NCBI GenBank assembly: GCA_963840855.1
Contig: CAWJBB010000022.1
Location: 1 to 27,891 of the forward strand
Reading direction: 5' to 3'
Length of the DNA: 27,891 nucleotides
Origin: an uncultured delta proteobacterium
GTDB taxonomy: Bacteria; Desulfobacterota; Binatia; UBA9968
Shown: one piece after another, positions 5,589-26,346 of the stretch
How the letters are laid out: every line of letters starts with the position of its first letter
Numbering within the stretch: the stretch's first letter is position 1
Made by a program: the position numbers and the translations under genes
The notes under the pieces: generated by a model
What the model was told of the DNA's origin: nothing
Database searches by the model: none
What the model saw: the letters and a program-made list of their open reading frames with translations, nothing else

Positions 5589-6053
5589 CTAGATCTGCCC
5601 GGTAGCCAGTATCTTGCTAATTTCCTGCCCCGCCGCCTCCGCTCGGGAACTTTCAACATACTGCTCAAACAGCGGAAACAGCTCCCGTTCTTCCCTACGG
5701 ATGTGACGTTCGAGTAAATCACCCAGATCGAAAATCAGTTTACTCACTCCCGTTCCTGCCGCTAGTGCTTTGACTCCTTGCCGAAAACTTTCGTGGTCGC
5801 GCAACAAGTCGTCCAGCAACGCCGCGCTTTCCGGCGCCGCCGCGCGCATCAACGGAAACAAGACTTCCTCTTCGGCGCGAAAATGTGGAATCAGCTGTTT
5901 ATCGAAAAACTCGCGCAACTCCGCAGCGCGGAGCCGGAGCCCCTCGGCGCCCATGGGCTTCAACTGTCCGAGAGACTGTTTACGGCAGCGCAGAGCGAGG
6001 GCCAAACCGTGATGATGATCGTGGGATAGTGGAGTGAGGCTCGGATGGCGCAT
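5589..6053 (-). CDS. Hemerythrin/HHE cation-binding domain protein (copy 1)
   Basis: Motifs SHDHHHGL, HFRAEEEVLFP, HESF and HIRREERELFP. ATG 6053 has a GAGG RBS and matches the copy 2 start. Confidence 0.85.
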   Translation of the reverse strand: MRHPSLTPLSHDHHHGLALALRCRKQSLGQLKPMGAEGLRLRAAELREFFDKQLIPHFRAEEEVLFPLMRAAAPESAALLDDLLRDHESFRQGVKALAAGTGVSKLIFDLGDLLERHIRREERELFPLFEQYVESSRAEAAGQEISKILATGQI

Positions 6054-6065
6054 GGACCTCAAAAC

Positions 6066-6133
6066 GGAGTGATGGAGTATTGGAGTGGTGGAGTGACGGG
6101 TTCCTGAGCATTACTCCATTACTCCAGCACTCC
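6066..6133. repeat. Inverted 8-nt tandem repeat (GGAGTRNT x4 / AKYACTCC x3)
   Basis: GGAGTGAT-GGAGTATT-GGAGTGGT-GGAGTGAC, spacer, ATTACTCC-ATTACTCC-AGCACTCC. Confidence 0.85.
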
Positions 6134-6147
6134 AAGGGTATTTTAGT

Positions 6148-7323
6148 TTATATCACTCCCTTGTTTCGCAGTGACGCCAACGCCGCCGCGTCGTATCCCA
6201 GCGAGTTTAGGATTTCGTCGGTGTGTTCGCCCAAAACCGGCGGTGGGCTGTCGATCGAAGGCGGCGTGCGGCTCATGTCGACGGCATTGCCCACCAGTTT
6301 CACCTTGCCCATCTTGGGATGCTCCACTTCGATGGGGAAGCCGTAGGTCTTCACCTGTGGATCGGCGAAAACCTCGTCAAGCGTATTGATGGGCGCAGCG
6401 GGCACGTCTTTTTCAATCAGCCGCTTCAACCATTCGTCGCGGCGGCCGCTGCGGAAAATCGGCGTTAGCCGCTCGACCAAAAGATCGTAATTTTCCACCC
6501 GGCCTTTGCGATTATTGAGTCGCGCGTCTTGCGCCCATTCGGGCTTGCCGACAACGTCAAAAAGCCCGAGCCAAAATTTATCCGGCGACGACATATGCAG
6601 CACGAAAGGCAAACCGTCCCGGTCTTCGAATGCGAAAACACCGGCGGTCGTTGTCCGATGCTTACGCCGCGGCACATGTCCGGTTTCGAAAAAGCGCGCC
6701 GCGTTCTCGCCTACGAACGACACCGAGGCGCGCAGCAGCGACGTTTCCACATGTTGCCCTTCGCCGGTCAACATGCGGTTCATCAACGCCGCCAACACGC
6801 CGTAGCAGGCGTACATGCCGGTGAGGTGATCGGAAAATGAGATGCCCATGCCCTGAGGTTTCCCGGGATCGGTCACGAGGCTGAGAATTCCGCTGCGCGC
6901 CTGCCCGATGGTGTCGTAGCCGGGCATATTACGATAGGGGCCCCTGGGTCCGAAACCGGAAATGGAGCAATAGACGATTTTCGGATTGATTGCCTTGACC
7001 CTCTCGTAGCCCAAACCGTACTTCTCCATGACGCCCGGCCGAAAGTTCTGAATCAGCGCGTCGGCATTTTTCGCCAGCTCGAGCACGACGTCTCTTCCCT
7101 CTTCGGTGCGAAGATCGAGCGTTACGCTTTTTTTGTTGCGGTTGAGGCTGCAAAAGGTCGCTGCGTAGTTGCGCTCGCCCCAGCCGCGAAACGGATCGCC
7201 GCGCTTGGGCTCCTCGATCTTGATGACCTCCGCGCCCATGTCCGCCAGCAACTGAGACGCGAAAGGGCCGGTGACGTAACTCGCCGTTTCTATTATTTTG
7301 ATTCCTGAAAGAGCGCCGCTCAT
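6148..7323 (-). CDS. Family III CoA-transferase (CaiB/BaiF/Frc) (copy 1)
   Basis: LSGIKII...GPFASQLLADMGAEVIKIEEP..GD, NRNKKSVTLDL, QNFRPG, YCSISGFG..GPY, GYD, and C-terminal PPVLGEHTDEIL. Confidence 0.95.
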   Translation of the reverse strand: MSGALSGIKIIETASYVTGPFASQLLADMGAEVIKIEEPKRGDPFRGWGERNYAATFCSLNRNKKSVTLDLRTEEGRDVVLELAKNADALIQNFRPGVMEKYGLGYERVKAINPKIVYCSISGFGPRGPYRNMPGYDTIGQARSGILSLVTDPGKPQGMGISFSDHLTGMYACYGVLAALMNRMLTGEGQHVETSLLRASVSFVGENAARFFETGHVPRRKHRTTTAGVFAFEDRDGLPFVLHMSSPDKFWLGLFDVVGKPEWAQDARLNNRKGRVENYDLLVERLTPIFRSGRRDEWLKRLIEKDVPAAPINTLDEVFADPQVKTYGFPIEVEHPKMGKVKLVGNAVDMSRTPPSIDSPPPVLGEHTDEILNSLGYDAAALASLRNKGVI

Positions 7324-7420
7324 GAAAACAACCCGCCGCGGCCCGCATTGACACGCGCCGCTAATTTTTTAGGCTCGTCTAGGTTTACCGAAAAGGGTAT
7401 TCACCACAGAACCACAATGG

Positions 7421-7524
7421 CCGCATTGCGCGAGTTCCAGTCGTTCAATATGTTCCAATCGTTCCAGACGTGCAAGATATCCGGAATCGATTTGAACGAC
7501 TTGAACGTTTGGAACGGCTGGAAC
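7421..7524. repeat. Inverted 9-nt tandem repeat (GTTCCAATC-type x4-5 / GnnTGGAAC-type x4)
   Basis: GTTCCAGTC-GTTCAATAT-GTTCCAATC-GTTCCAGAC, spacer, GATTTGAAC-GACTTGAAC-GTTTGGAAC-GGCTGGAAC. The leader CCGCATTGCGCGAG is shared with the element at 20041. Confidence 0.85.
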
Positions 7525-7594
7525 CAGCAGCTTCTTAGCCGCCGTTGCGCCATCCGCGGTTAGCCACAGCGAACTGAAAACCTATTCTTTATCC

Positions 7595-10500
7595 CTAACT
7601 GTTACGGGCTTGGGAAGTCAAGGCTTCGGGTTGCGGCGCCGCGTCCGTGGGAGGAAGTTCGACTGAGTAAGGAAGCCAAAATGTGAACCTAGAGCCTTTT
7701 CCCGGCGCGCTTTCGACGCGGACACCGCCTTGCATGAGTTCGAGATTTTTTTTCACGATACTCAGTCCGAGACCGACGCCGTCGTTTTTGCTCTTGCCGG
7801 GACTTTTAACCTGTTCGAACTTTTCAAAGATCCGATCCAGGTCGTGAGCGTCAATGCCGATGCCGGTGTCGGCGACGGAGAATTCTACCCTTTGGAGCTC
7901 CGGTCGATGACGCGCCGAGATGTCGATGCGCCCGGCGGTAGTAAACTTAAAGGCGTTGCCGATCAGGTTGTGCAAAACTTCTTCGAACTTCACCGGATCG
8001 GTGAAAAGCCGCGGCAGGCCATCGTCGACATGCCAGCCGATTTCAAGTTGGTTGTTGGGATTCAGTTGCGCGACGTGGTCGCGCCCATGCTGCAAGACTT
8101 CGGTGATATCCACTTCGGCGGGCTCCAGGGCCATGCGTTTGGCTTCGAGGCGCGAAAGCTTCAGCAGATCGTTGATCATTTTTAACAGCACATGGCCGTT
8201 GCGCGCGATTTTGCGCATGGCGCTCTTCTGTTCGTTATTGATTTCGCCGAAGATTCCATCGTGGGTGACATCGGCGTTGCCGATCATAATGTTCAGAGGC
8301 GTGCGCAGCTCGTGGGACATGGCGGCGATAAACTCCGACTTGGCCTGGGTGGCCGCGCGCAGTTCCTCATTGATTTTTTCCAGCTCGGCGGACTGCTTTT
8401 TGATCTCTGCGAACAGCTTGGCGTTTTCCACCGCGACGCCGATCTCTTGCGCCACCGACTCGAGGAGGCGGAGCTCATCCGCCGTATAGCTTCGGCTCTG
8501 CCAGTTGACCGCGTATAAGACACCGATGACCTTTTCCCTGGCCTTGATCGGTACCGCGATGCTGCCGCGATAACCCCGCCGGTGGACCCGGTTGAGCGAC
8601 AAGACCGCGCGGTAGCGCTCCAGCTCCGGCCCGTCCTCTAGAGCCAAGCGCCGCCCGCTCGACACCACCGTCTTGCCGATGCCGCTTCTGGCGCTTTGAG
8701 CAGCCAGCATTTGAGCCGTTTCACTGCTGAGGCCCTTGTAGGCTTTGAGGTGCAATTTCTGCTCTTGCTTCTCCATCATATACGCCCAAGCGGCGTCGAA
8801 CTTGAGAACGCTAACGACCCTGTCGAGGGCCTCACGTAACACCGTCTCCAAATCCAGGGAGCGGCTTACCGCCGCCGCCACTTCATTAAGAACCATCAAG
8901 TGCTCCGACTTGGAGCGTGCCTGGTGGTACAATGAGGAGTTTTCCACCGCCACGCCGAGTTGCTCCGCCATGGAGCCCAAAAGCCGAATTTCTTCTTGCT
9001 TGAGTGATCGGCTCAACTTGCCGCCAAAGACCAGCGCGCCATAGCAGGAATGTTTGGTCTTAACCGGAAAGGCTGCGAGAAAGCCCATGCCGGCCATGCC
9101 ACTGGCGCGGCTCTCGCTCATCTCGGGATAGTCTGCATTGTTCGCAACATCTTCAAAAATCTTGGGCTGGGCGGTTTCGACGACTTTTCCTACGATGCTT
9201 TGGCCGCGCCTGAAACTGGCGATATCGACCCACGGCTCCGGATTCACTTCAAAACAGCCGCGCAATGAGATGAGATCAGTGTCGGGATCGTAAAGATAAA
9301 CCCGGGTCGTATCGAAACCGAATAGCGCAGTGATTTTCTTAATTACCGCGTCCAAGACAGCCTCGACCTCAAGGCTCTGGCTCACCATGGCGGTGATTTC
9401 GTAGAGCGCCGAGATTTCCTGAGTGCGTTGTTCGACTCGCTGCTCCAGGGTTGCTCTGGACTGCTCCAACGCTATGGTCATGTGATTGAACTCTTTGGCG
9501 AGCTCCTCGATTTCGTCGCCGGTATTCACCTGGGCGCGGTGCGTCAAATCGCCCTGCCGGATGGTTTCGACGCTGTCCCGGAGTTCCTGAATCGGCCGGG
9601 AAATTCGGCGGCTCAACCAGACAATAACGGCCGCGCCCACGAGAAGCCCCGCGGCAAGCAGCGCCAGCGCGTGAACGTAGAGGTCCCGCAATTCGGCCAC
9701 GACAGCCTCCAGGGGTTCTTCCACGATGACACCCCAACCGAGATCCGGGATGCGCAAATAGGTGCTCAAGACTGCCTCGTCGGCGACGCCGACGACTTCC
9801 GTAGCGGGAGTAACGTCGGCGCTACTGCTGGCGAGAAACTGCCGCACTTTGGGCAGATCACGAAGATTGCGCTTGACCAGCGAATAAGAGGGATCGGGGT
9901 GGGCGATGAGCCAGCCAGAATCATCGATTACATAGGCGTTGCCGCGGCGGCCGAATCTCACATCTCTGATAGCCGGCCGCGAGAAAATCCAGTCTGGCTC
10001 GCGCCGTCAGCGCGCCGGCCAGTCGGCCTGCACCGTCTCTAAGAGGCACCGCCAATGTCACCCACGACGGCCCTGAGGGGCGCGCTCCGGGCGTTGTCTT
10101 GATATACGATTTTCCCGCGACGGCCGCGAGATATTCGGGCGCGTTAATAAAATCGCCGCGCGACGAGACTGTGTCGCAATTAGCCGTTCGCCCTTCGACC
10201 CTTCGAGGGGCCTCAGGGCGGGCCCCCTCGACAGCCTTTAGTCCCGAGCCTGTCGAGGGGTCAGAACGAACGGGTAAGTCTTTGAATTTCGGAGTGCCAC
10301 CATCCGTTCGTGGTGAGCCTTTCGAACCATGAACAGAATTTCGACACAGTCTCGGTGCGAGGGCACTAGCCTTGCGTGCAGAGAGCCGGAACAGAGCAAC
10401 TCCTTGTGCGTTAATGACCGCGACTTCCTCGATTGACCCATCGTTTTTCAGAAGCAGACTGGCCAAACGGCGCTGCTGTTCTCCGCCGGCGGAGAACACC

Positions 10501-10748
10501 ATCATGGCGGCGCCGGCGTTTTCCAGACGCTCGATCTCGCGGCGCAGGAAGGTTTGCATGCGAACCGCGGTGAACAACGCCACCTCGGCCTGCAGGCGCG
10601 CCGTCGACTCGCGCATGGCGTGGTGAGTATACAGCGATCCGGCGAAGGTATTGATGAGCAGTGCCAAGGCGAGAAGGCTTAGCCCCCACGCCATAAGTCG
10701 GCGTTCAATGCGCCCCCTGCGCGGATGTTGCGCTAGTGGATAGTGCAT
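7595..10748 (-). pseudogene. Membrane sensor histidine kinase (Cache-HAMP-GAF-GAF-HisKA-HATPase), copy 1, split by a +1 frameshift near 9980
   Basis: ORFs 9921-10808 and 7595-9961 together match intact copy 2. Copy 1 reads CCGGCCGCGAGAAAA versus CCGGCCGGAGAAAA in copy 2 (one extra C). H-box SHELRTPLN, N-box NLIGNAFKFT, DTGIGI and GVGLGL are present. Confidence 0.85.
10164..10354. mobile_element. MITE family B (191 bp) inserted in frame in the kinase sensor domain
   Basis: Terminal inverted repeats CGAGACTGTGTCGCAATT / AATTTCGACACAGTCTCG match 17/18. Internal palindromes are CCCCTCGACAG..CTGTCGAGGGG and CCGTTCG..CGAACGG. Confidence 0.8.
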
Positions 10749-10963
10749 TTCAACAAATTTTCGCGGCTTCCGCCGGACAAAGAGACATTGGCATTGAGAC
10801 GGAGCCACATGTGTAATCAGCGGCGGTCGAGCGATAGATAAAGCCCCCGTAGACGAGCTTTACCGCGCTATTCGAGTGTTGCGCTTTCCCCTCGCTCCCG
10901 GAAATGTCCCAATTGGCGACCTACCGCCGAGAAGTCTCGCGGCGTCGAGAGAATCCCGTCACT

Positions 10964-11161
10964 TCAAGAGTGCATTCGCGGCCCATTGGCCGCACCTTGC
11001 GGGTGAACCATGGCCAGTATTTCACTTCTGCTGAAACGCCAGCCACCGCCAAACTTTCTGCCTGGCAACGAACCCTGTTTTACAAGTTTGTAAACCGTGC
11101 GGGGATGAATCTGTAACAGGTCCGCCACCTGATTTGCTGTAAGAATTTCTTCAACCTGCAT
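10964..11161 (-). CDS. Helix-turn-helix domain protein, HTH_17/excisionase-like (copy 1)
   Basis: 65 aa, ILTANQVADLLQIHPRTVYKLVKQGSLPGRKFGGGWRF; GGAGGA RBS before ATG 11161. Confidence 0.9.
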   Translation of the reverse strand: MQVEEILTANQVADLLQIHPRTVYKLVKQGSLPGRKFGGGWRFSRSEILAMVHPQGAANGPRMHS

Positions 11162-11206
11162 ATGTCCTCCATAGAATACTTCGGAATTTAGCCCCTTACT
11201 CTTAAG

Positions 11207-11221
11207 GCAGGAGCCATGCCA
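11207..11221 (-). promoter_or_regulatory. Candidate sigma54 (-24/-12) promoter (copy 1)
   Basis: Minus strand TGGCATGGCTCCTGC has correct GG-N10-GC spacing, 45 nt upstream of the HTH ATG, and is identical in copy 2. Confidence 0.6.
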
Positions 11222-11259
11222 GCCGGCACCACGATACCCGCAAAGCGAAACTTTCGTGA

Positions 11260-11340
11260 TTACAATGACTTGAAAGTTTACGGAAGAGAGGAAATTTCCC
11301 GAGAGGTTAAAAAAACCGCCATGAGTGACGGAAATTGGCA
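11260..11340. promoter_or_regulatory. Candidate IHF site (11260-11272) and activator/enhancer site (11326-11340) upstream of the sigma54 promoter
   Basis: TTACAATGACTTG partly matches WATCAANNNNTTR. TGACGGAAATTGGCA is an imperfect TGNCA-N5-TGNCA-like palindrome ~110 bp upstream of the -24 box. Both are retained in copy 2. Confidence 0.35.
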
Positions 11341-11378
11341 ACGATGGGTGGCGGTTTCAAGGGAAATCATAAAACCGC

Positions 11379-11912
11379 TCATTGAGCGAGTCGGAGGATC
11401 ACTGCGACGGACTTCTGGCACAGTAGTAACTTCGTGGGACAATCAAGGAGCCAATCTCCAAGAGCCAGTATCTTGCTAATTTCCTGCCCCGCCGCCGCCG
11501 CTCGGGAACTTTCAACATACTGCTCAAACAGCGGAAACAGTTCCCGTTCTTCCCTACGGATGTGACGTTCGAGTAAATCACCCAGATCGAAAATCAGTTT
11601 ACTCACGCCCGTTCCGGCCGCTAGTGCTTCGACTCCTTGCCGGAAACTTTCGTGGTCGCGCAACAAGTCGTCCAGCAACCCCGCGCTTTGCGGCGCCGCC
11701 GCGCGCATCAACGGAAACAAAACTTCCTCTTCGGCGCGAAAATGTGGAATCAGCTGTTTATCGAAAAACTCGCGCAACTCCGCTGCGCGGAGCCGGAGTC
11801 CCTCGGCGCCCATGGGCTTCAACTGTCCGAGAGACTGTTTACGGCAGCGCAGAGCGAGGGCCAAACCGTGATGATGATCGTGGGATAATGGAGTGAGGCT
11901 CGGATGGCGCAT
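11379..11912 (-). CDS. Hemerythrin/HHE domain protein (copy 2) with a junction-derived C-terminal extension
   Basis: Nearly identical to copy 1 up to ...EISKILA, then reads across the duplication junction (LGDWLLDC...RLAQ*) instead of TGQI*. Confidence 0.8.
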   Translation of the reverse strand: MRHPSLTPLSHDHHHGLALALRCRKQSLGQLKPMGAEGLRLRAAELREFFDKQLIPHFRAEEEVLFPLMRAAAPQSAGLLDDLLRDHESFRQGVEALAAGTGVSKLIFDLGDLLERHIRREERELFPLFEQYVESSRAAAAGQEISKILALGDWLLDCPTKLLLCQKSVAVILRLAQ

Positions 11913-11924
11913 CGACCTTAAAAC

Positions 11925-11992
11925 GGAGTGATGAAGTATTGGAGTGGTGGAGTGATGGATTCCTCACCGTTACTCTGTTACTACAGCACTCC
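11925..11992. repeat. Inverted 8-nt tandem repeat (copy 2 of 6066-6133)
   Basis: GGAGTGAT-GAAGTATT-GGAGTGGT-GGAGTGAT ... GTTACTCT-GTTACTAC-AGCACTCC. Confidence 0.75.
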
Positions 11993-12006
11993 CAGGGTAT
12001 TTTAGT

Positions 12007-13182
12007 TTAAATCACGCCCTTGTTTCGCAGTGACGCCAACGCCGCCGCGTCGTATCCCAGCGAGTTTAGGATTTCGTCGGTGTGCTCGCCCAAAACCGGC
12101 GGTGGGCTGTCGATCGAAGGCGGTGTGCGGCTCATGTCGACGGCATTACCCACCAGTTTCACTTTGCCCATCTTGGGATGCTCTACTTCGATGGGGAAGC
12201 CGTAGCTCTTCACCTGTGGATCGGCGAAAACCTCGTCAAGCGTATTGATGGGCGCAGCGGGTACGTCTTTTTCAATCAGCCGCTTCAACCATTCGTCGCG
12301 ACGACCGGTGCGGAAAATCGGCGTTAGCCGCTCGACCAAAAGATCGTAATTTTCCACCCGGCCTTTGCGATTATTGAGTCGCGCGTCTTGCGCCCATTCG
12401 GGCTTGCCGACAACGTCAAAAAGCCCGAGCCAAAATTTATCCGGCGACGACATATGGAGCACGAAAGGCAAACCGTCCCGGTCTTCGAATGCGAAAACAC
12501 CGGCGGTCGTTGTCCGATGCTTACGCCGCGGCACATGTCCGGTTTCGAAAAAGCGCGCCGCGTTCTCGCCTACGAACGACACCGAGGCGCGCAGCAGCGA
12601 CGTTTCCACAAGTTGCCCTTCGCCGGTCAACATGCGGTTCATCAACGCCGCCAACACGCCGTAGCAGGCGTACATGCCGGTGAGGTGATCGGAAAATGAG
12701 ATGCCCATGCCCTGAGGTTTCCCGGGATCGGTCACGAGGCTGAGAATTCCACTGCGCGCCTGCCCAATGGTGTCGTAGCCGGGCATATTACGATAGGGGC
12801 CCCTGGGTCCGAAACCGGAAATGGAACAATAGACGATTCTCGGATTGATTGCCTTGACCCTCTCGTAGCCCAAACCGTATTTCTCCATGACACCGGGCCG
12901 AAAGTTCTGAATTAGCGCGTCGGCATTTTTCGCCAGCTCGAGCGCGACGTCTCTTCCCTCTTCGGTGCGAAGATCGAGAGTGACGCTTTTTTTGTTGCGA
13001 TTGAGGCTGCAAAAGGTCGCTGCGTAGTTGCGCTCGCCCCAGCCGCGAAACGGATCGCCGCGCTTGGGCTCCTCGATCTTGATGACCTCCGCTCCCATGT
13101 CCGCCAGCAACTGAGCCGCGAAAGGGCCGGTGACGTAACTCGCCGTTTCTATTATTTTGATTCCTGAAAGAGCGCCGCTCAT
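12007..13182 (-). CDS. Family III CoA-transferase (copy 2)
   Basis: 391 aa with 6 amino-acid differences from copy 1. Confidence 0.95.
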   Translation of the reverse strand: MSGALSGIKIIETASYVTGPFAAQLLADMGAEVIKIEEPKRGDPFRGWGERNYAATFCSLNRNKKSVTLDLRTEEGRDVALELAKNADALIQNFRPGVMEKYGLGYERVKAINPRIVYCSISGFGPRGPYRNMPGYDTIGQARSGILSLVTDPGKPQGMGISFSDHLTGMYACYGVLAALMNRMLTGEGQLVETSLLRASVSFVGENAARFFETGHVPRRKHRTTTAGVFAFEDRDGLPFVLHMSSPDKFWLGLFDVVGKPEWAQDARLNNRKGRVENYDLLVERLTPIFRTGRRDEWLKRLIEKDVPAAPINTLDEVFADPQVKSYGFPIEVEHPKMGKVKLVGNAVDMSRTPPSIDSPPPVLGEHTDEILNSLGYDAAALASLRNKGVI

Positions 13183-13296
13183 GAAAACAACCCGCCGCGG
13201 CCCGTATTGAACGTGCCGAAAGATTTTTAGCGCTCGTCAAGGTTTACCGCAAAAGGGAATTGACCCCAGAAGACAACAATTGGCCACAAGGCGCGA

Positions 13297-13395
13297 GTTC
13301 CAGTCGTTCAATATGTTCGAATGGTTCCAGACGTGCAGAGATATCCGGATTCGGTCTTAAACGACTTGAACGTTTGTGACCGTCGCGGTGGATCC
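13297..13395. repeat. Degraded copy of the 9-nt inverted tandem repeat
   Basis: GTTCCAGTC-GTTCAATAT-GTTCGAATG-GTTCCAGAC ... GACTTGAAC-GTTTGTGAC, with many indels relative to 7434-7524. Confidence 0.65.
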
Positions 13396-13498
13396 AGCAT
13401 CTTCTCTAGCCGACCTTTGCGCCATCCGTGGTTAGCCACTGAGAAACTTCGATAACCTAGGCTCTATCGCGCTAGACTGTTACGGGCTTGGGAATTGC

Positions 13499-16400
13499 TC
13501 AAGGCTCGGGTTGCGGCGCCGCGTCCCTGGGAGGAAATCCGACCGAGTAAGGAAGCCAAAATGTGAATCTAGAGCCTTTTCCCGGCGCGCTGTCGACGCG
13601 GACACCGCCTTGCATGAGTTCGAGATTTTTTTTCACGATACTCAGGCCGAGACCGACGCCGTCGTTTTTGCTCTTGCCGGGACTCTTAACCTGTTCGAAC
13701 TTTTCAAAGATCCGATCCAGGTCCTGAGCGTCAATGCCAATGCCGGTGTCGGCGACGGAGAATTCTACCCTTTGGAGCTCCGGTCGATGACGCGCCGAGA
13801 TGTCGATGCGCCCGGCGGTAGTAAACTTAAAGGCGTTGCCGATCAGGTTGTGCAAAACTTCTTCGAACTTCACCGGATCGGTGAAAAGGCGCGGTAGGCT
13901 ATCGTCGACATGCCAGCCGATTTCAAGTTGGTTGTTGGGATTCAGTTGCGCGACATGGTCGTGCCCATGCTGTAAAACTTCGATGATATCCACCTCGGCG
14001 GGCTCCAGGGCCATGCGCTTGGCTTCGAGGCGCGAAAGCTTCAGCAGATCGTTGATCATTTTCAACAGCACATGGCCGTTGCGCGCGATTTTGCGCATGG
14101 CGATCTTCTGTTCGTTATTGATTTCGCCGAAGATCCCATCGTGGGTGACATCGGCGTTGCCGATCATAATGTTCAGAGGCGTGCGCAGCTCGTGGGACAT
14201 GGCGGCGATAAACTCCGACTTGGCCTGCGTGGCCGCGCGCAGTTCCTCATTGATTTTTTCCAGCTCGGCGGACTGCTTTTTGATCTCTGCGAACAGCTTG
14301 GCGTTTTCCACCGCGACGCCGATCTCTTGCGCCACCGACTCGAGGAGGCGGAGCTCATCCGCCGTGTAGCTTCGGCTCTGCCAGTTGACCGCGTATAAGA
14401 CACCGATGACCTTTTCCCTGGCCTTGATCGGTGCCGCGATGCTGCCGCGATAACCCCGCCGGTGGACCCGGTTGAGTGACAAGACCGCGCGGTAGCGCTC
14501 CAGCTCCGGCCCGTCCTCTAAAGCCAACCGCCGCCCGCTCGACACCACCGTCTTGCCGATGCCGCTTCTGGCGCTTTGAGCAGCCAGCATTTGAGCCATT
14601 TCACTGCTGAGGCCCTTGTAGGCTTTGAGATGCAATTTCTGCTCTTGCTTTTCCATCATATACGCCCAAGCGGCGTCGAACTTGAGCACGCCAACGACCC
14701 TGTCGAGGGCCTCGCGTAACACCGTCTCCAAATCCAGGGAGCGGCTTACCGCCGCCGCCACTTCATTAAGAACCATCAAGTGCTCCGACTTGGAGCGTGC
14801 CTGGTGGTACAGTGAAGAGTTTTCCACCGCCACCCCGAGTTGCTCCGCCATAGAGCCCAATAGCCGAATTTCTTCTTGCTTGAGCGATCGGCTCAACTTG
14901 CCGCCAAAGACCAGCGCGCCATAACAGGAATGTTTGGTCTTAACCGGAAAGGCTGCCAGAAAGCCCATGCCAGCCATGCCACTGGCGCGGCTCTCGCTCA
15001 TCTCGGGATAGTCTGTATTGTTCGCGACATCTTCAAAAATCTTGGGCTGCGCGGTTTCGACGACTTTTCCTACGATGCTCTGGCCGCGCCTGAAACTGGC
15101 GATATTGACCCACGGCTCCGGATTCACTTCAAAACAGCCGCGCAATGAGATGAGATCACTGTCGGGATCGTAAAGATAAACCCGGGTCGTATCGAAACCG
15201 AATAGCGCAGTGATTCTCTTAATTACCGCGTCCAAGACAGCCTCGACCTCGAGGCTCTGGCTCACCATGGCGGTGATTTCGTAGAGCGCCGAGATTTCCT
15301 GAGTTCGTTGTTCGACTCGTTGCTCCAGAGTTGCTCTGGACTGCTCCAACTCTGTGGTCATGTGATTGAACTCTTTGGCGAGCTCTTCGATTTCGTCGCC
15401 GGTATTCACCTGGGCACGGTGCGTCAAATCGCCCTGCCGAATAGTTTCGACGCTGTCCCGGAGTTTCTGAATCGGCCGGGAAATTCGTCGGCTCAACCAG
15501 ACGATAACGGCCGCGCCCACGAGAAGCCCGGCGGCAAGCAGCGCCAGCGCATGAACGTAGAGGTCCCGCAATTCGGCCACGACAGCCTCCAGGGGTTCTT
15601 CCACGATGACGCCCCAACCGAGATCCGGGATGCGCAAATAGGTGCTCAAGACCGCCTCGTCGGCGACGCCGACGACTTCCGTAGCGGGAGTGGCGTCGGC
15701 GCTACTGGTGGCGAGAAACTGCCGCACTTTGGGCAGATCACGAAGATTGAGTCTGACTAGCGAATAAGAGGGATCGGGGTGGGCGATGAGCCAGCCAGAA
15801 TCATCGATTATATAGGCGGTGCCGCGCCGGCCGAATCTCACATCGCTGATAGCCGGCCGGAGAAAATCCAGTCTGGCTCGCACCGTCAGCGCGCCGGCCA
15901 GCCGGCCTGCACCGTCTCTAAGAGGCACCGCCAATGTCACCCGCGACGGGCCTGAGGGGCGCTCTCCGGGCGTTGCCTTGACATACGACTTTCCCGCGAC
16001 GGCCGCGAGATATTCGGGCGCGTTGATAAAATCGCCGCGCGACGAGACTCTGTCGCAATTACTCGTTATCCCTTCCACCGTTCGAGGGGCCTCAGGGCGG
16101 GCCCCCTCGACAGCCTTTAATCCCGAGCCTGTCGAGGGGTTAGAACGAACGGGTAACTTATAGAATTTCGGAGTGCCAACATCCGTTCGTGGCGAGTCTG
16201 TCGGACCATGAACAGAGTTTTGACACAGTTTCGGTGCGCGGAAATTAGCCTTGTCTGCGGAAAGCCGAAACAGAGCAACTCCTTGTGCGTTAGTGACCGC
16301 GATTTCCTCGATTGACCCATCGTTTTTTAGAAGCAGACTGGCCAAACGGCGCTGCTGTTCTCCGCCAGCGGAGAACACCATCATAGCGGCGCCGGCGTTT

Positions 16401-16627
16401 TCTAGACGCTCAATTTCGCGGCGCAGGAAGGTTTGCATGCGAACCGCGGTGAACAACGCCACCTCGGCCTGCAGGCGCGCCGTCGACTCGCGCATGGCGT
16501 GGTGAGTATACAGCGATCCAGCGAAGGTATTGACGAGCAGTGCCAAGGCGAGAAGGCTTAGCCCCCACGCCATGAGTCGGCGTTCAATGTGCCTGCTGCC
16601 CAGATGTTGGGCTAATGAATAGCGCAT
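13499..16627 (-). CDS. Membrane sensor histidine kinase (TM-dCache-TM-HAMP-GAF-GAF-HisKA-HATPase_c), copy 2, intact
   Basis: Two TM helices, Cache motif AYIIDDSGWLIAHPD, HAMP (ISRPIQKL..GDL...DEIEELAKEFNHM), two GAF domains ending QLGVAVEN and EIGVAVEN, and H/N/G1/F/G2 boxes. No receiver domain. Start taken at ATG 16627. Confidence 0.92.
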   Translation of the reverse strand: MRYSLAQHLGSRHIERRLMAWGLSLLALALLVNTFAGSLYTHHAMRESTARLQAEVALFTAVRMQTFLRREIERLENAGAAMMVFSAGGEQQRRLASLLLKNDGSIEEIAVTNAQGVALFRLSADKANFRAPKLCQNSVHGPTDSPRTDVGTPKFYKLPVRSNPSTGSGLKAVEGARPEAPRTVEGITSNCDRVSSRGDFINAPEYLAAVAGKSYVKATPGERPSGPSRVTLAVPLRDGAGRLAGALTVRARLDFLRPAISDVRFGRRGTAYIIDDSGWLIAHPDPSYSLVRLNLRDLPKVRQFLATSSADATPATEVVGVADEAVLSTYLRIPDLGWGVIVEEPLEAVVAELRDLYVHALALLAAGLLVGAAVIVWLSRRISRPIQKLRDSVETIRQGDLTHRAQVNTGDEIEELAKEFNHMTTELEQSRATLEQRVEQRTQEISALYEITAMVSQSLEVEAVLDAVIKRITALFGFDTTRVYLYDPDSDLISLRGCFEVNPEPWVNIASFRRGQSIVGKVVETAQPKIFEDVANNTDYPEMSESRASGMAGMGFLAAFPVKTKHSCYGALVFGGKLSRSLKQEEIRLLGSMAEQLGVAVENSSLYHQARSKSEHLMVLNEVAAAVSRSLDLETVLREALDRVVGVLKFDAAWAYMMEKQEQKLHLKAYKGLSSEMAQMLAAQSARSGIGKTVVSSGRRLALEDGPELERYRAVLSLNRVHRRGYRGSIAAPIKAREKVIGVLYAVNWQSRSYTADELRLLESVAQEIGVAVENAKLFAEIKKQSAELEKINEELRAATQAKSEFIAAMSHELRTPLNIMIGNADVTHDGIFGEINNEQKIAMRKIARNGHVLLKMINDLLKLSRLEAKRMALEPAEVDIIEVLQHGHDHVAQLNPNNQLEIGWHVDDSLPRLFTDPVKFEEVLHNLIGNAFKFTTAGRIDISARHRPELQRVEFSVADTGIGIDAQDLDRIFEKFEQVKSPGKSKNDGVGLGLSIVKKNLELMQGGVRVDSAPGKGSRFTFWLPYSVGFPPRDAAPQPEP
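16043..16233. mobile_element. MITE family B, in-frame copy within kinase copy 2
   Basis: Ends CGAGACTCTGTCGCAATT / AGTTTTGACACAGTTTCG; same length and position as in copy 1. Confidence 0.75.
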
Positions 16628-16633
16628 TTCAAC

Positions 16634-16805
16634 AAATTTTCGCGGCTTCCGCAAATTTTACCGGAGGTCTGTGCCCTTATAGGCGCTTAGGATTTTTCTC
16701 CCGCCAAGTCGCCAAGAACGCCAAGTTCGGATTCATTTTTTCCTTGGCGGCCTTTGCGCCTTTGCGCGAGATATCCCGGCTTTTGGTTGTGGCGGAGCCC
16801 GCTAG
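16634..16805. repeat. Family C element: CGCMAAG x3 / CTTKGCG x3 inverted repeat with a left AAATTTTCGCGG hairpin and a tail ending GCTAG
   Basis: CTCCCGCCAAG-TCGCCAAG-AACGCCAAG-TTCGGA ... CTTGGCG-GC-CTTTGCG-C-CTTTGCGCGAG-ATATCCCG..GGTTGTGGCGGAGCCCGCTAG. Homologous to 20523-20726 and mostly absent from duplication copy 1. Confidence 0.8.
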
Positions 16806-16958
16806 GTGATCAGCGGCGGTCGAGCGATAGATAAAGCCCCCATAGACGAGCTTTACCGCGCTGTTCGAGTGTCGCGCTTTCCCCTTCCGCTCCCGGATAT
16901 GGCCCAATTGGCGACCTACCGCCGAGAAGTCTCGCGGCGTCGAGAGAATCCGGTCACT

Positions 16959-17156
16959 TCAAGAGAGCATTCGCGGCCCATTGGAGGCACCTTGCGGATG
17001 AACCATGGCCAGTATTTCACTTTTGCTGAAACGCCAGCCGCCGCCAAACTTTCTGCCTGGCAACGAACCCTGTTTTACAAGTTTGTAAACCGTGCGGGGA
17101 TGAATCTGTAACAGGTCCGCCACCTGGTTTGCTGTAAGAATTTCTTCAACCTGCAT
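16959..17156 (-). CDS. HTH_17/excisionase-like DNA-binding protein (copy 2)
   Basis: 65 aa, near-identical to copy 1; GGAGGA RBS. Confidence 0.9.
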   Translation of the reverse strand: MQVEEILTANQVADLLQIHPRTVYKLVKQGSLPGRKFGGGWRFSKSEILAMVHPQGASNGPRMLS

Positions 17157-20188: not shown

Positions 20189-20321
20189 ATATAGCAAATT
20201 CGAAATGCGAAATTTTACTTTGCGCTCTTTGTATTACTATCCAAAAACTAACACCAACATGTTTGTCATAACATGCCGCTGAAATATTGCGGAAGTTTAA
20301 GGTTCTCGGATTCGGAAATTC

Positions 20322-20463
20322 CTCCCGCCAAGGCGCAAAGGCGCCAAGTTCGGAGGGGAAGGAAAAATATTCTCGCAAATGGTTTTCACCATTTTTCTCC
20401 CACCTTTGCGGCCTTTGCGTCTTTGCGGGAGCCATTCCGAGTTTCCGTCGCGGCTGTTCGCCG
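20322..20463. repeat. Family C element (CGCMAAG x3 / CTTTGCG x3) with tail
   Basis: CTCCCGCCAAG-GCGCAAAG-GCGCCAAG-TTCGGAGGG ... CTTTGCG-GC-CTTTGCG-T-CTTTGCGGGAG-CCATTCCGAG..GCGGCTGTTCGCCG. Confidence 0.8.
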
Positions 20464-20522
20464 ACAAGGCGAACCTCTTTTTCCCAGCGCAGTCTGGGAA
20501 AAAGCGTGTACTACTATAGTTC

Positions 20523-20726
20523 AAAATTTTCGCGGCTCGCGAAAATTTTTCGCTGACCTGAACTCGGACAAGGGGATTTACTCGCGCCAAGGCGCAAAGT
20601 ACGCCAAGTTCGGAGGGAAAAGATGAATTGTCTATCAGAAACGTGTCACCGTTATCGTCCGACCTTTGCGGCCTTGGCGTCTTTGCGCGAGATATTCCGA
20701 ATTTTGCTTGCGGCGTAGCCGCGCTA
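20523..20726. repeat. Family C element with a perfect 12-bp left hairpin and a tail ending in the livH stop codon
   Basis: AAAATTTTCGCG-GCT-CGCGAAAATTTT (20523-20549). Then CTCGCGCCAAG-GCGCAAAG-TACGCCAAG ... CTTTGCG-GC-CTTGGCG-T-CTTTGCGCGAG-ATATTCCGAA..TTGCGGCGTAGCCGCGCTA. Confidence 0.85.
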
Positions 20727-21608: not shown

Positions 21609-22760
21609 CTACTTTTGAATCACGTATTGGTTGGCTTTGGTCATCATGACGATGGCGGTCTGCACTGCGTCATAACCGGCGGGTTTGCCGTCGCGGCCGA
21701 TGACCTGGCGGAACTTGAAGGGGCCGGTGGCGCCGGTCCATTGAATCGCGGGCAAAGCATCGCGCAGCGCCTTGCGGTCGGCCTCCAGTTTACCCATGAC
21801 TTTGATTTTTTTTAGCGCCTGCGCGGCGATATACATCGCGTCATGGGCCTGCGCCGCGAACTGGTCCGGCAGCCCGCCATAGGCTTTCTGGTAGGCGGCA
21901 ATGAAACGCTGGTTTTCCGGCGCGGGATTTTCCACGGACCAGGGGCTGCCGACCCAGAGATTATCGGAATTGTCTTTAGCCAGCTCGAATATCCGGGACG
22001 AGTTCATGCCGTTGCCGCCGATAAACGGTGCTGTGATGGCTAATTGGCGCGCTTGGACCATGATCGGCGCGCCTTCGGCGACCAGCGCCGAGAGCACCAC
22101 CGCGTCGGGATTGCTCGCCTTGATCTTGGTCAGTTGTGGTTTAAAGTCCACGTCGCCCTTGGCAAAAGTCTCCGTGGTCGTGACGGGAATTTTAAGAGCA
22201 CGCAGAGCCTTGGCAAAATTATCGTAGCCGCTCTTGGTGAAGATATCGTCATTGCCGTAGAGCACCGCTACTTTTTTCAATCCCGTTTTTTGCGCCGCGA
22301 CCTTGAGCGTCACCGGCAAGATATCGGCCTCGGTGACGGAATTGCGAAAGACATAATTGCCGATGGAGGTAATGCCATCGGCGGTATTCGAAGTGCCAAA
22401 CACGACCACCTTGGCGCCCTGCGCCACCGGGTCGGAGGCCTGCGCGGAATTGGACAGAGTCGGACCGAACAACATCAGCACCTTGTCTTGAAAAATGAGC
22501 TTCTTAAAAACGTTGATGGCCTCTTCTTTCTTGCCTTGCTCGTCTTCGATGACCAACTCTATTTTATGGCCGTTGACACCGCCGCTGGCATTGATCTCAC
22601 CTGCTGCAAGCTCGAAGCCCTTGCGGATCGGCACGCCATACTGCGCGGCGTTGCCCGTCAAGGCTTCGGCGACGCCGATCTTAATTTCCGCCGCGACATC
22701 GATGGCGGATGCGCCGAGAATTCCTAGTATCGCTCCGAGGATCAACAGTCTCAGTTTCAT
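21609..22760 (-). CDS. livK: Branched-chain amino acid ABC transporter substrate-binding protein (LivK/LivJ family)
   Basis: ATG 22760 with GAGGAG RBS, signal peptide, IKIGVAEALTGNAAQYG, INASGGVNG and DFKPQLTKIK. Confidence 0.9.
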   Translation of the reverse strand: MKLRLLILGAILGILGASAIDVAAEIKIGVAEALTGNAAQYGVPIRKGFELAAGEINASGGVNGHKIELVIEDEQGKKEEAINVFKKLIFQDKVLMLFGPTLSNSAQASDPVAQGAKVVVFGTSNTADGITSIGNYVFRNSVTEADILPVTLKVAAQKTGLKKVAVLYGNDDIFTKSGYDNFAKALRALKIPVTTTETFAKGDVDFKPQLTKIKASNPDAVVLSALVAEGAPIMVQARQLAITAPFIGGNGMNSSRIFELAKDNSDNLWVGSPWSVENPAPENQRFIAAYQKAYGGLPDQFAAQAHDAMYIAAQALKKIKVMGKLEADRKALRDALPAIQWTGATGPFKFRQVIGRDGKPAGYDAVQTAIVMMTKANQYVIQK

Positions 22761-22788: not shown

Positions 22789-23358
22789 CTATTTCTTTCC
22801 CGCCTCCACATGCCAGAGATAAAGCGTATGATCCCAGCTATGTCCGTCTTTAATGTGTTCGGTTTTGAGCGGTTTCCATTCGGCCATGTCGAAGTCATGC
22901 GAAACCACCCGGGAGCCAGGCTTCATCTGTTTCCAGATGTTGGGACGGATCATCAAATTCACTTCGGGCAGCAGATACATGGTCAATACCGACGCCGGCG
23001 CAAGATCCACCGTGCGGATATCTTGCTGGCGGATTTCTACCAGATTGCCGACGCCGGCTTTCTTGATGTTCTCCCGTGACTCCTTGATCCGCTCCGGATC
23101 GATTTCAAAGCCGATGGCGCGTACGCCGTATTTTTGCGCCGCGGTAATCACGATCCTGCCGTCGCCGGAGCCGAGATCGTAAACTACGTCGCCCTTCTTC
23201 ACCTGCGCCATTTCGAGCATCCGCTCCACCACTTCCTGTGGCGTGGGAACGTAGGGAACGATCTTGCCTTCTTGCGCTTGGACGAGCGTTAGATTTGCCG
23301 CCAGCGGCAGCGCGTTTATTAACGCCACCGCCAAAGTCATCCGCCATGATTTTTTCAT
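22789..23358 (-). CDS. Class I SAM-dependent methyltransferase, FAM173/ATPSCKMT-like, with a predicted signal peptide
   Basis: VPYVPTP, motif I VYDLGSGDGRIVITAA, GFEID and PGSRVVSHDF. N-terminus MKKSWR, hydrophobic stretch, VQA|QE. GGAGG RBS. Confidence 0.85.
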   Translation of the reverse strand: MKKSWRMTLAVALINALPLAANLTLVQAQEGKIVPYVPTPQEVVERMLEMAQVKKGDVVYDLGSGDGRIVITAAQKYGVRAIGFEIDPERIKESRENIKKAGVGNLVEIRQQDIRTVDLAPASVLTMYLLPEVNLMIRPNIWKQMKPGSRVVSHDFDMAEWKPLKTEHIKDGHSWDHTLYLWHVEAGKK

Positions 23359-23379
23359 ATCCGCCTCCGTGATGCGGGG

Positions 23380-23452
23380 GTTCATCGTTCAAAGTTCAAG
23401 GTTCAAGGCGGGGATAGGTCGTTGAACTTTGAACCCGGAACTTTGAACCGCG
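23380..23452. repeat. Inverted 7-nt tandem repeat (GTTCAAG x4 / YTTGAAC x4)
   Basis: GTTCATC-GTTCAAA-GTTCAAG-GTTCAAG, spacer GCGGGGATAGGTC, GTTGAAC-TTTGAAC-CCGGAAC-TTTGAAC-CGCG. Confidence 0.85.
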
Positions 23453-23456
23453 CATG

Positions 23457-23762
23457 CTAGCCGTTTTTCTGCCAAAATTTTCCGAGCCAGCCGCCGCTTT
23501 CCTTCTCCGCCACCTGCTCCAACTCGCCGGCATCGAGCCAGATACCCTGGCAGCTGGTGCATTGATCGATCGCAATCTTCTGGAAGCTGCGCTCTTTCAG
23601 CGGCCCGCCGCACTTGGGACACCTCATAGAGCTAGCTTCCTTCGCGGCACTCTTGGTTTCGGCCTCGTGCTTCGCTCGTAGCTTCGCCAGCTGTTCCTGT
23701 TCCTTCTTCACGAAGTATTCGTCTTCCTGCGCCTTCTTTCGCTCATCCCATTTGTTTGCCAT
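23457..23762 (-). CDS. Zinc-ribbon (zf-TFIIB-type) protein with an IF1-like N-terminal helix
   Basis: CPKC...IDQCTSCQGIWLDAGELE is the zf-TFIIB pattern. N-terminal WDERKKAQEDEYF..EQLAKL..HE. GGAGGA RBS. Confidence 0.85.
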   Translation of the reverse strand: MANKWDERKKAQEDEYFVKKEQEQLAKLRAKHEAETKSAAKEASSMRCPKCGGPLKERSFQKIAIDQCTSCQGIWLDAGELEQVAEKESGGWLGKFWQKNG

Positions 23763-23864
23763 CGCTGTCCTCCAAAAACCTAGAAATTCGGTTGCGGTTT
23801 CGAAGCCAAAATTTTTTAGGCACTTACGCTTAAAATGCTCGACTGAACGACTTCAGAAAGTTTA

Positions 23865-23943
23865 TCGCGCCAAGACGCCAAGCACGCAAAGAAAGACTCT
23901 TACCTATACTCCAAACCTTGGCGGCCTTTGCGCCTTTGCGCGA
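23865..23943. repeat. Family C inverted repeat core (CGCMAAG x3 / CTTKGCG x3)
   Basis: TCGCGCCAAG-ACGCCAAG-CACGCAAAG, 25-nt spacer, CTTGGCG-GC-CTTTGCG-C-CTTTGCGCGA. Confidence 0.85.
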
Positions 23944-24102
23944 GTCATGGTTTTTCCGATTTCTTCGCCAATATTCTGTTCAAAATTTCAAACGTCTTTG
24001 GTTAGCTATTTGCTCTTGGGCGCCGAGATTTTGCTCCTGCGCCGTGGTCCGCCTCGTTCGCGATGCGCAGATTGTTAAGAAACCAAGGCCGGCCCTTTAG
24101 AT

Positions 24103-24717
24103 TCAGCCAGGGAAATCATTGATATAGGGGAGTTTCGCCGCGGTTTTCTTTACCTGTTCAAGATTGGCCCGCAGCAGCGCCGTCGAGTCCCAAGAGCCGC
24201 TGGTGAGCGCGCTGCGGTAGGTCTCCGGCAGGTCGATGGCAATCCTGTGGCCGCCATAGGTAATCGTTTTCGCTTCGAGGTCGATGGTGAATTCAGTTCG
24301 AGGCTGCTCATCCACGCTCTTCATCAGCTGGTCAATCTCTTTCGCACCGACGGTCACCGTGGGCACACCCATGATCGTGCAGTTACCGGCAAAAATCGCT
24401 GCGAAAGATTCGCCGACAATGGCCTTGAGGCCAAAGCGGTAAAGCGCCTGGGGCGCGTGTTCCCGCGAAGAGCCGCAGCCGAAGTTCTTGTTGACGAACA
24501 GTATCGATGCGCCGCGGTATTCCGGGTCATTGAATGGGTGGTCTTTCTGCTTTCTCGCGGCGTCGAATCGCTCGTCGAAAAACGGATACTCGCCCATGCG
24601 CGCGAAGGTCACTTCCTTTAAATAACGCGCCGGAATGATCCGGTCGGTATCGATATCGTTTCCTCTCATCGGAAGCGCCGTGCCGGAAATTTTGGCGATC
24701 TTAACGATTTCGCTCAT
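24103..24717 (-). CDS. leuD: 3-isopropylmalate dehydratase small subunit
   Basis: DIDTDRIIPARYLK, NFGCGSSREHAPQAL and SFAAIFAGN. Confidence 0.96.
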   Translation of the reverse strand: MSEIVKIAKISGTALPMRGNDIDTDRIIPARYLKEVTFARMGEYPFFDERFDAARKQKDHPFNDPEYRGASILFVNKNFGCGSSREHAPQALYRFGLKAIVGESFAAIFAGNCTIMGVPTVTVGAKEIDQLMKSVDEQPRTEFTIDLEAKTITYGGHRIAIDLPETYRSALTSGSWDSTALLRANLEQVKKTAAKLPYINDFPG

Positions 24718-24727
24718 GGTTCCTCGC

Positions 24728-26125
24728 TTACCGATACTCCCGCACGTCCACGACTTTGCCGTTGAGCGCCGCGGCAGCGACCATCGCCGGGCTCATCAAC
24801 AAAGTCCGTCCCGTCGGACTCCCCTGGCGCCCGATGAAATTACGGTTGGACGATGACGCTGAAATCTCGCGCCCATTAAGCTTGTCGGGATTCATCGCGA
24901 GACACATAGAGCAGCCCGCTGCGCGCCACTCAAAGCCCGCCGCCGTGAAGATCTCGTGCAGTCCTTCCGCTTCCGCCAGTTTCTTAACCTCGGCGGAACC
25001 GGGAACTACCAATGCCCGAATACCCGAGTGCACCTTGCGCCCCTTGGCGATTTCAGCCGCCGCGCGCAGATCGGTAAGCCGCGAGTTGGTGCAGGAGCCG
25101 ATGAACGCGACATTAATGGGCGTGCCCAGTATCGGCGCGCCGGGTTGCCAGCCCATATGTTCATAGGCTTTTTTCGCTCCTTCCGGGTCGGCATACTGCG
25201 CCGGCGTGGGCAGCTTTTCCGAGATACCCACCGCCTGGCCCGGATTGATACCCCAGGTCACAGTCGGCTCGATGTCCGTTCCCGCCATCTCAACGACATC
25301 GTCATACTGGGCATCCGCATCGGAGGCCACCGACTTCCAGTAATTAACGGCGCGGTCGAAGGCCGCTCCCGTTGGCACATAATGCCGGCCGTTAAGATAA
25401 TCGAAAGTGGTCTGATCGGGATTGACATAACCGACCAGCGCGCCGCCCTCGATGCTCATGTTGCACACGGTCATGCGTTCTTCCATGTTCATGATGTCAA
25501 TGACCGAACCGCCATATTCATAGGCGAACCCTTTGCCACCGCCCACGCCCAGGCGGCGGATGATGCTCAAGATCACGTCTTTGGCGTAAACTCCGATGCC
25601 CAGTGCGCCGTTTACGTTGATGCGGCGCACTTTGAGCTTGTCCATCGCCAGCGTTTGTGTCGCCAACACGTCGCGCACCTGGCTGGTGCCGATGCCGAAA
25701 GCCAGAGTGCCAAAGGCGCCATGGGTGCTCGTGTGGCTGTCGCCGCAGGCGAGCGTCATCCCGGGCTGGGTGAGACCGAGTTGTGGCCCAATCACATGAA
25801 CGATACCCTGGTTGGGACTGTCAAGGCCAAAAAATTCCACCCCGAACTGCTGCACGTTCTTTTCCAACGCCTTGGTTAGATCTTCGGCTTCCTGGTCGAG
25901 AAACGGCCGGCTGCGCACATCGGTCGGCACGATATGGTCCAGCGTCGCGAAGGTGCGCTCGCGAAACGCCACATCCATGCCCTTCTCACGCAGCATGTCG
26001 AACGCCGGCGCCGTGGTGATTTCATGGATTAGATGAAGCCCAATAAATAGTTGCGTCTGTCCAGTTGGCAAAATCCCCACCGTGTGGGATTCCCAAATCT
26101 TGTCATAGAGCGTCCGGCCGGCCAT
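24728..26125 (-). CDS. leuC: 3-isopropylmalate dehydratase large subunit
   Basis: ATG 26125 with [58 protein letters not shown] and [10 protein letters not shown]. Confidence 0.97.
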
Positions 26126-26211: not shown

Positions 26212-26346
26212 GTTCAAGGTTCAATGGCGGTTCGAAGTTCAAGGTGGGGATGGGTCGTTGAACCTTGAACGCGAAACCTTGAACCGCGCTGAAGGCGCCA
26301 CATTGAACATTGAACGTTGAACATTGAACGGCGCCCCTCAGGGCGC
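26212..26346. repeat. Inverted 7-nt tandem repeat (GTTCAAG/TTGAAC family) with an extra right-arm block
   Basis: GTTCAAG-GTTCAAT..GTTCGAA-GTTCAAG, spacer GTGGGGATGGGTC, GTTGAAC-CTTGAAC-GCGAAAC-CTTGAAC-CGCG. Then ATTGAAC-ATTGAAC-GTTGAAC-ATTGAAC and the hairpin GCGCCC-CTCA-GGGCGC. Confidence 0.85.

Follow-up and report, generated by a model that had tools for sequence, protein, structure and literature searches.

The occurrence side by side of a gene for an IF1-like protein and a gene for a methyltransferase resembling ATPSCKMT/FAM173 in an uncultured bacterium raises the question of whether the two constitute a module regulating F1Fo (as the original prediction held) or whether the small protein alone should be considered as a possible inhibitor of F1. 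The window (the whole stretch of DNA that was analysed, 27,891 nt) carries the following features:

23457..23762, minus strand: 101-aa ORF with an IF1-like helix, a TFIIB-type zinc ribbon and a short C-terminal helix (ORF list, Pfam, AlphaFold)
23658..23756, minus strand: IF1-like helix, residues 3-35 of the 101-aa protein (Pfam IATP, ungapped alignment with bovine IF1)
23505..23624, minus strand: zf-TFIIB (PF13453) zinc ribbon, CPKC...CTSC-G-WLD-GELE (Pfam; closest solved structure ZifS, 8yoz)
23379..23453, no strand assigned: dispersed hairpin-forming repeat, most of the 98-nt gap (repeat search and folding)
22789..23358, minus strand: aKMT/FAM173-like class I SAM methyltransferase, 189 aa (ORF, NCBIfam, PDB matches)
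23275..23358, minus strand: predicted Sec-type signal peptide of the methyltransferase (sequence; heuristic only)
24103..26125, minus strand: leuC-leuD, upstream members of the same conserved gene block (leuD from Pfam; leuC from sequence and position)
21609..22760, minus strand: livJ-like periplasmic binding protein directly downstream of the methyltransferase (PF13458, E 3.3e-65)

The layout is as originally described: both genes lie on the minus strand and the 98 nt between the two ORFs are rich in repeat, with about 75 nt occupied by the repeat itself (23379-23453) and the remainder mostly by the ribosome-binding region. The methyltransferase starts at the ATG at 23358 with a GGAGG ribosome site, and a hairpin of -33.6 kcal/mol is predicted over 23371-23460. 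The gap repeat has a second copy in the window (at about 26230-26289) and 146 matches genome-wide (nhmmer, E ≤ 0.01). Dispersed intergenic repeats of at least two families occur in the window, comprising these two copies as well as 16687-16799, 20311-20720 and 23853-23973. A scan of the minus strand for promoters and terminators found none, and the ribosome site is the only common motif in the upstream regions of 27 orthologues inspected by eye. Metatranscriptome contigs from 4 of 24 runs give patchy, low cover.

The 101-aa protein is a fusion of a helix with a zinc ribbon. Residues 47-86 match the zf-TFIIB family (E 2.2e-17, 62.6 bits against a cut-off of 22), as do all 40 examined members of the family to which the protein belongs, and the AlphaFold model (mean pLDDT 72) shows a helix at 3-44, the ribbon at 54-68 and helices at 78-87 and 92-99. 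The likeness to IF1 that had been claimed for the protein applies only to residues 3-35; the rest includes a ribbon that had escaped the earlier description. In Foldseek, for which a lone helix is uninformative, the zinc ribbon of ZifS (TTHA0897, 8yoz) is the sole match to the model; it shares the fold and the G-x-W-L-D-x-G-E-L motif, but the match starts at ZifS residue 4, i.e., ZifS is devoid of the N-terminal IF1-like helix. No literature on ZifS was found, and a search of the ESM Atlas with residues 1-45 gave no usable match. The protein has three paralogues in the same genome and 648 close homologues, those named by NCBI being mostly labelled Candidatus Binatia. A helix profile detects the family in 42 of the 201 genomes of the phylum, among them all five genomes from other families of the class; related loci (80 of 586 kept) come under further labels such as Acidobacteriota, Nitrospirae and Gemmatimonadota. 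The 120 helix carriers listed of 280, from a crowded search, are all about 85-155 aa long with no fusions to other domains, and a whole-protein search for longer forms was dominated by ribbon repeats. Four proteins (P0144, P0146, P0161 and P0250) contain two tandem helix-plus-ribbon units each and would, by analogy with the IF1 dimer, present two helices.

The resemblance of the N-terminal helix to IF1 (PF04568; bovine 2v7q_J, yeast 3zia_J) is weak in any single match and specific under genome-wide and PDB-wide controls, under which the original claim of an IF1-like protein holds. The Pfam IATP model matches residues 3-35 at E 2.8e-4 and 21.7 bits against a gathering cut-off of 25; the score is 24.1 bits in the genome-wide scan and lies above the cut-off in 0 of 201 genomes. 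By formal tests, the protein is not a member of the IF1 family. Bovine IF1 22-60 aligns with it without gaps (W5=F22, E13=E30, Y16=Y33, F17=F34, Q24=Q41, L25=L42 and L28=L45), the likeness proper being to the inhibitory helix (IF1 22-52), and the IF1 residues R25, A28, E30, Y33, F34, Q41, L42, L45 and H49 are kept. In a six-frame IATP scan of the 7.1-Mb genome, the four best of five matches (E ≤ 10) are the 101-aa ORF and its three paralogues. Across the 201 genomes of the phylum, 47 contain a match at E ≤ 0.5, and all seven matches at E < 0.01 belong to the small-protein family. A helix-only profile of 42 columns, built from 35 sequences chosen out of 46 candidates by the E-x-x-aromatic pattern, yielded 11 matches at E ≤ 10 among 177,635 PDB sequences: eight are named IF1, two are the plant protein At2g27730 and one is ‘PSK’ with an IF1-like stretch, with no unrelated coiled coil among the 11. 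The E-values of these matches are weak (0.011-0.78; 0.0016-1.4 in the other PDB comparison). Among 47 dereplicated members, Glu is found in 100%, Y/F in 98%, F in 89%, I/L in 77% and L/M in 72%, the conservation at E30/Y33/F34 being partly built into this set and into the profile by the selection of rows by pattern. A 40-row whole-protein alignment, with rows picked by eye for N-terminal coverage, still shows conservation of 90% or more at E13 and F17. IATP matches at E ≤ 0.05 are present in 16 of 40 family members, and a subfamily starting K-P-S-E-x-E-E-E-Y-F is without the F22-R25 part and the L42/L45 pattern.

According to a review, prokaryotes have no IF1 except in two presumed cases of transfer (PMC9317440), and a literature search covering few subscription journals retrieved no paper describing a zinc-ribbon protein with IF1 likeness from bacteria. 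From its sequence, the 101-aa protein can be put forward, tentatively and as a nearly even call, as a candidate F1 inhibitor. Acting alone, it would be a dissociable brake on ATP hydrolysis by F1Fo: the helix (residues about 5-35) would insert at the catalytic alpha/beta interface, where E13, Y16, F17, L25 and L28 would clamp the C-terminal domain of beta, like IF1 residues 22-46, such that hydrolysis would be blocked. E30 and Y33 are given as key contacts of IF1 with beta in PMC10066207. Both proteins are small and soluble, with genes away from the atp genes; in contrast, the dimerising coiled coil of IF1 is replaced here by the zinc ribbon, which might serve as an anchor or as a metal/redox switch, and the putative IF1-like inhibitor is bacterial and scores below the Pfam cut-off. 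A further difference concerns gamma, which is wrapped by residues 1-20 of IF1: this segment, including the gamma-contacting stretch 8-20, is missing in the 101-aa protein and its orthologues, where only four residues precede the F22 equivalent. IF1 minus residues 1-22 still inhibits, incompletely (PMC10066207). A conserved bacterial family with the binding residues of IF1 would make the origin of IF1 testable by a 45-residue peptide and an ATPase assay.

On the side of the target, the Arg partner of the inhibitory helix (R408 of bovine beta) is kept in 29 of 29 beta sequences. Five beta residues confer sensitivity of F1 to bovine IF1, namely S405, D471, L473, A474 and H477 (PMC10949317). A474 is the sole one shared by beta of the source genome, which has A398 for S405, K464 for D471, M466 for L473 and, ending before position 477, none for H477. 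A native inhibitor of this F1 would need co-adaptation, as is the case for zeta. Epsilon keeps its C-terminal helices, so that a built-in brake on F1 may already be present in the source organism. A complex prediction for the helix (residues 1-50) with alpha (92-503) and beta (76-469), gamma omitted and controls not folded, scored 0.14 against a mark of 0.32, a value that counts neither for nor against binding. The atp genes of the genome are located on another contig (C62), and no small-protein gene was found near atp genes in any locus examined; the zeta gene likewise lies outside atp operons (PMC9317440).

Lack of linkage to atp genes, together with a beta C-terminus that is mostly of the bacterial type, would also suit a helix that is a real, selected motif (related to or converging on IF1) with a partner other than F1, such as another ATPase, an FtsH-like protease or some other complex, the methyltransferase being unrelated. 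Certain paralogues do adjoin FtsH-type AAA proteases (C32:46311-46661, C32:53149-53499, L030 and L052), although this linkage is restricted to some of them, and a survey of 97 flanking ORFs around small-protein genes revealed no neighbour conserved across phyla. The conserved columns, moreover, are those that IF1 uses on beta, which argues for F1 as the partner. The two At2g27730 entries among the PDB matches of the helix are named P2/NDUP2 there, an accessory subunit of complex I, so IF1-like helices may serve other complexes. Nevertheless, At2g27730 is included as IF1 in the accession list of one preprint (10.1101/2021.02.02.429459). On balance, a partner other than F1 is a possible, if somewhat doubtful, reading.

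Apart from IF1, the candidate inhibitory helix invites comparison with zeta (PF07345), the first 14 residues of which hold the inhibitory domain (PMC10469736). A similar N-terminal spacing (aromatic-D-D/E-R-x-K-A-x-E-x-x-Y/F) is seen in both at the same distance from the start, while the four-helix bundle of zeta is missing in the 101-aa protein. This comparison is post hoc and was prompted by a zeta N-terminus among the matches of the helix profile in the class of a Sphingomonas record, where 201 genomes gave three matches at E ≤ 0.01 (one from a degenerate family member, one in a frame interrupted by a stop and one at the N-terminus of a zeta subunit). In that class, L302:1486-1827 is a family member with a degenerate zinc ribbon (IATP E 0.046); L304:1249-1557 is a divergent zeta (PF07345, E 3.8e-15) with an N-terminus that reads like the helix of the small-protein family. 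When an ungapped matrix of 29 zeta N-termini was applied, residues 5 onward of the 101-aa ORF ranked first in the genome (6.0-6.7 million windows, all five widths tried), with 0.008-0.35 matches at such a score expected per genome; the score is restricted to the W/F-D-D/E-R subfamily. Profile methods gave less: the helix profile (HMMER) scored 30 zeta proteins at a median of 0.2 bits, as compared with -1.0 for shuffled sequences (95th percentile 2.9), 17 of the 30 in the same register, and hhalign assigned a probability of 1-3% to the pairing of zeta with the small-protein helix. A zeta N-terminal profile (HMMER) had no match at E ≤ 1 in the source genome, and none of its 22 matches in 61 relatives and 61 genomes of another class is the small-protein family; PF07345 itself is without a match at E ≤ 10 in the source genome. 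The apparent likeness to zeta is weak and method-dependent, and is best treated as a lead. Zeta and IF1 are held to be convergent (PMC9317440; PMC10469736). A single helix carrying both the zeta motif (first 12 positions) and the IF1 motif (through L45) would represent a third class of helix-type F1 inhibitor, a bridge with the zinc ribbon as a metal/redox switch, which we consider unlikely; if true, such a bridge family would point to descent of zeta and IF1 from one bacterial inhibitory helix and not to convergence.

An invariant Glu together with a buried-type Tyr-Phe pair is unusual for a spacer, other charged helices (in 201 genomes and 177,635 PDB sequences) score below the small-protein family and 9 of 20,000 shuffles of the helix reach the zeta-matrix score. 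These observations render it quite improbable that the helix is an ordinary charged coiled coil or spacer of a zinc-ribbon protein with a match to IF1 by compositional chance, even though the stretch is short and E/K-rich (about 30 charged helical residues), scores below the Pfam cut-off with weak E-values, and although 3 of 14 control genomes also contain IATP matches at E ≤ 0.5.

As regards the second gene, the motifs VPYVPT...DLGSGDGRIVITAA...GFEID are present in the methyltransferase as had been noted, and the protein contains a seven-beta-strand methyltransferase domain of the aKMT type, i.e., of the same family as aKMT (5fa8), ATPSCKMT/FAM173B and ANTKMT/FAM173A. The best matches are to archaeal aKMT (NCBIfam NF041081 at E 1.7e-45, below its 200-bit cut-off; PDB entries 5fa8 at E 1.4e-44 and 5bxy at E 1.3e-49), and the 10 ESM Atlas clusters listed are all bacterial. 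According to PMC9006661, FAM173A/B are distantly homologous to aKMT and have relatives in bacteria. The FAM173-like assignment stands for the domain, and has to be supplemented by a signal-peptide-like segment at the N-terminus (a basic n-region, a hydrophobic core and V-Q-A before Q) that it did not take into account. This layout recurs in 29 of 30 orthologues, the remaining one being cut by the contig end, and most orthologues have an A-x-A-type site before Gln. The genome harbours 13 copies of the methyltransferase family at E ≤ 1e-30 (most relatives in the family hold 2-12), distributed over contigs C22, C59, C85, C62, C53, C77, C75, C79 (two), C55 (two), C33 and C76. The hydrophobic core reaches 2.2-3.4 in each of the 13 paralogues as compared to at most 1.74 in seven cytoplasmic controls, the signal-peptide call being a hydropathy heuristic and not SignalP. 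Export from the cytoplasm is hence predicted for the methyltransferase, whose target would then lie beyond it; such a location would separate the enzyme from F1, from the loop of the c-ring and from the IF1-like protein. FAM173B, in comparison, has a non-cleaved anchor and a pre-MTase domain instead of a predicted cleavable signal peptide, and the 13 paralogues and a local AtpE without Lys43 are further departures from the ATPSCKMT/FAM173B system. A separate question is raised regarding the role outside the cytoplasm of many apparently exported SAM-dependent methyltransferases, and their source of SAM.

The c-subunit lacks the loop lysine that is the substrate of ATPSCKMT/FAM173B, Lys43: all 31 sequences have Ala at the equivalent position, with the register taken from the alignment to bovine c and Ala there whichever way the gap is placed. 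The loop reads R-N-P-N-A/S-A-D/E/P-K/R, and of the 31 sequences 21 have Lys and 10 have Arg at position 45, with Arg in six of the eight pair-carrying genomes for which AtpE was retrieved (second c-subunit matches in two of these genomes excluded). In the order (L031, L176-L205), all 31 AtpE sequences carry an N-terminal extension resembling a signal peptide, together with a penultimate Lys. This Lys, which from the topology should presumably face the periplasm, is a leftover route for an exported enzyme, but it is also present in family f3, where the methyltransferase was not found.

An orthologue of the small gene occurs in 27 family genomes, which served to examine the conservation of the pair: in 18 of them the methyltransferase orthologue lies next to it in the same orientation, in two it is within 5 kb and in seven on a separate contig (one at a contig break). 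Both genes occur in the majority of genomes of family f1 and not in any of the 19 genomes of f3. The flanks in the window (leuC-leuD upstream, a livJ-type transporter cluster downstream) conform to a conserved block with the order leuC-leuD-IF1-like-methyltransferase-cstA/livJ. Of 30 methyltransferase loci viewed with 1.5 kb on each side, 19 contain cstA, 18 the small gene, 15 leuD and seven livJ. After the methyltransferase orthologue, a transport gene is present by count in 28 of 30 loci (L206-L235; cstA 19, livJ-type seven, other ABC binding protein two). Outside the family, neither the methyltransferase nor an atp gene was found at L037-L078 (up to 6 kb on each side) or at 37 further loci (1.5 kb on each side). 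The exception is L036, labelled Chloroflexota, which is 79-89% identical with the same gene order and is probably a mis-binned contig. Apart from it, the adjacency was seen in a single family among the loci examined, as part of a longer block that in no case lies close to atp genes. The pair thus forms one segment of a block passed on by inheritance.

The proposal of a two-gene module, in which the c-ring or the IF1-like protein would be the substrate of the methyltransferase and both genes would regulate F1Fo, is hardly credible despite the shared orientation, the common distribution across f1 and f3 and the penultimate Lys of AtpE, given the signal-peptide layout, the Ala at the Lys43 position and the frequent Arg at position 45, a synteny limited to one family in which cstA accompanies the methyltransferase as often as the IF1-like gene does (19 against 18 of 30 loci), the occurrence of the helix gene elsewhere with no such neighbour, the presence of the same Lys in f3 and the 13 copies per genome that make chance adjacency easy. 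Two of the three refuting conditions named in the original prediction, on the AtpE loop and on synteny, turn out against it. The two genes are likely neighbours by inheritance and not a module, and no support should be drawn from the FAM173-like neighbour.

Elsewhere in the window, a tandem duplication of about 5.9 kb (93-97% identity) is located at 5589-17156, and contig C32 holds a similar duplicate of 6.8 kb. Genome contamination is 8.27%, so strain mixing is possible. As named from sequence, the 5.9-kb unit contains a CoA-transferase-like gene, a large sensor-kinase-like gene and small genes, with the sensor-kinase-like gene encoding 1051 aa in one copy and being represented by two ORFs in the other.
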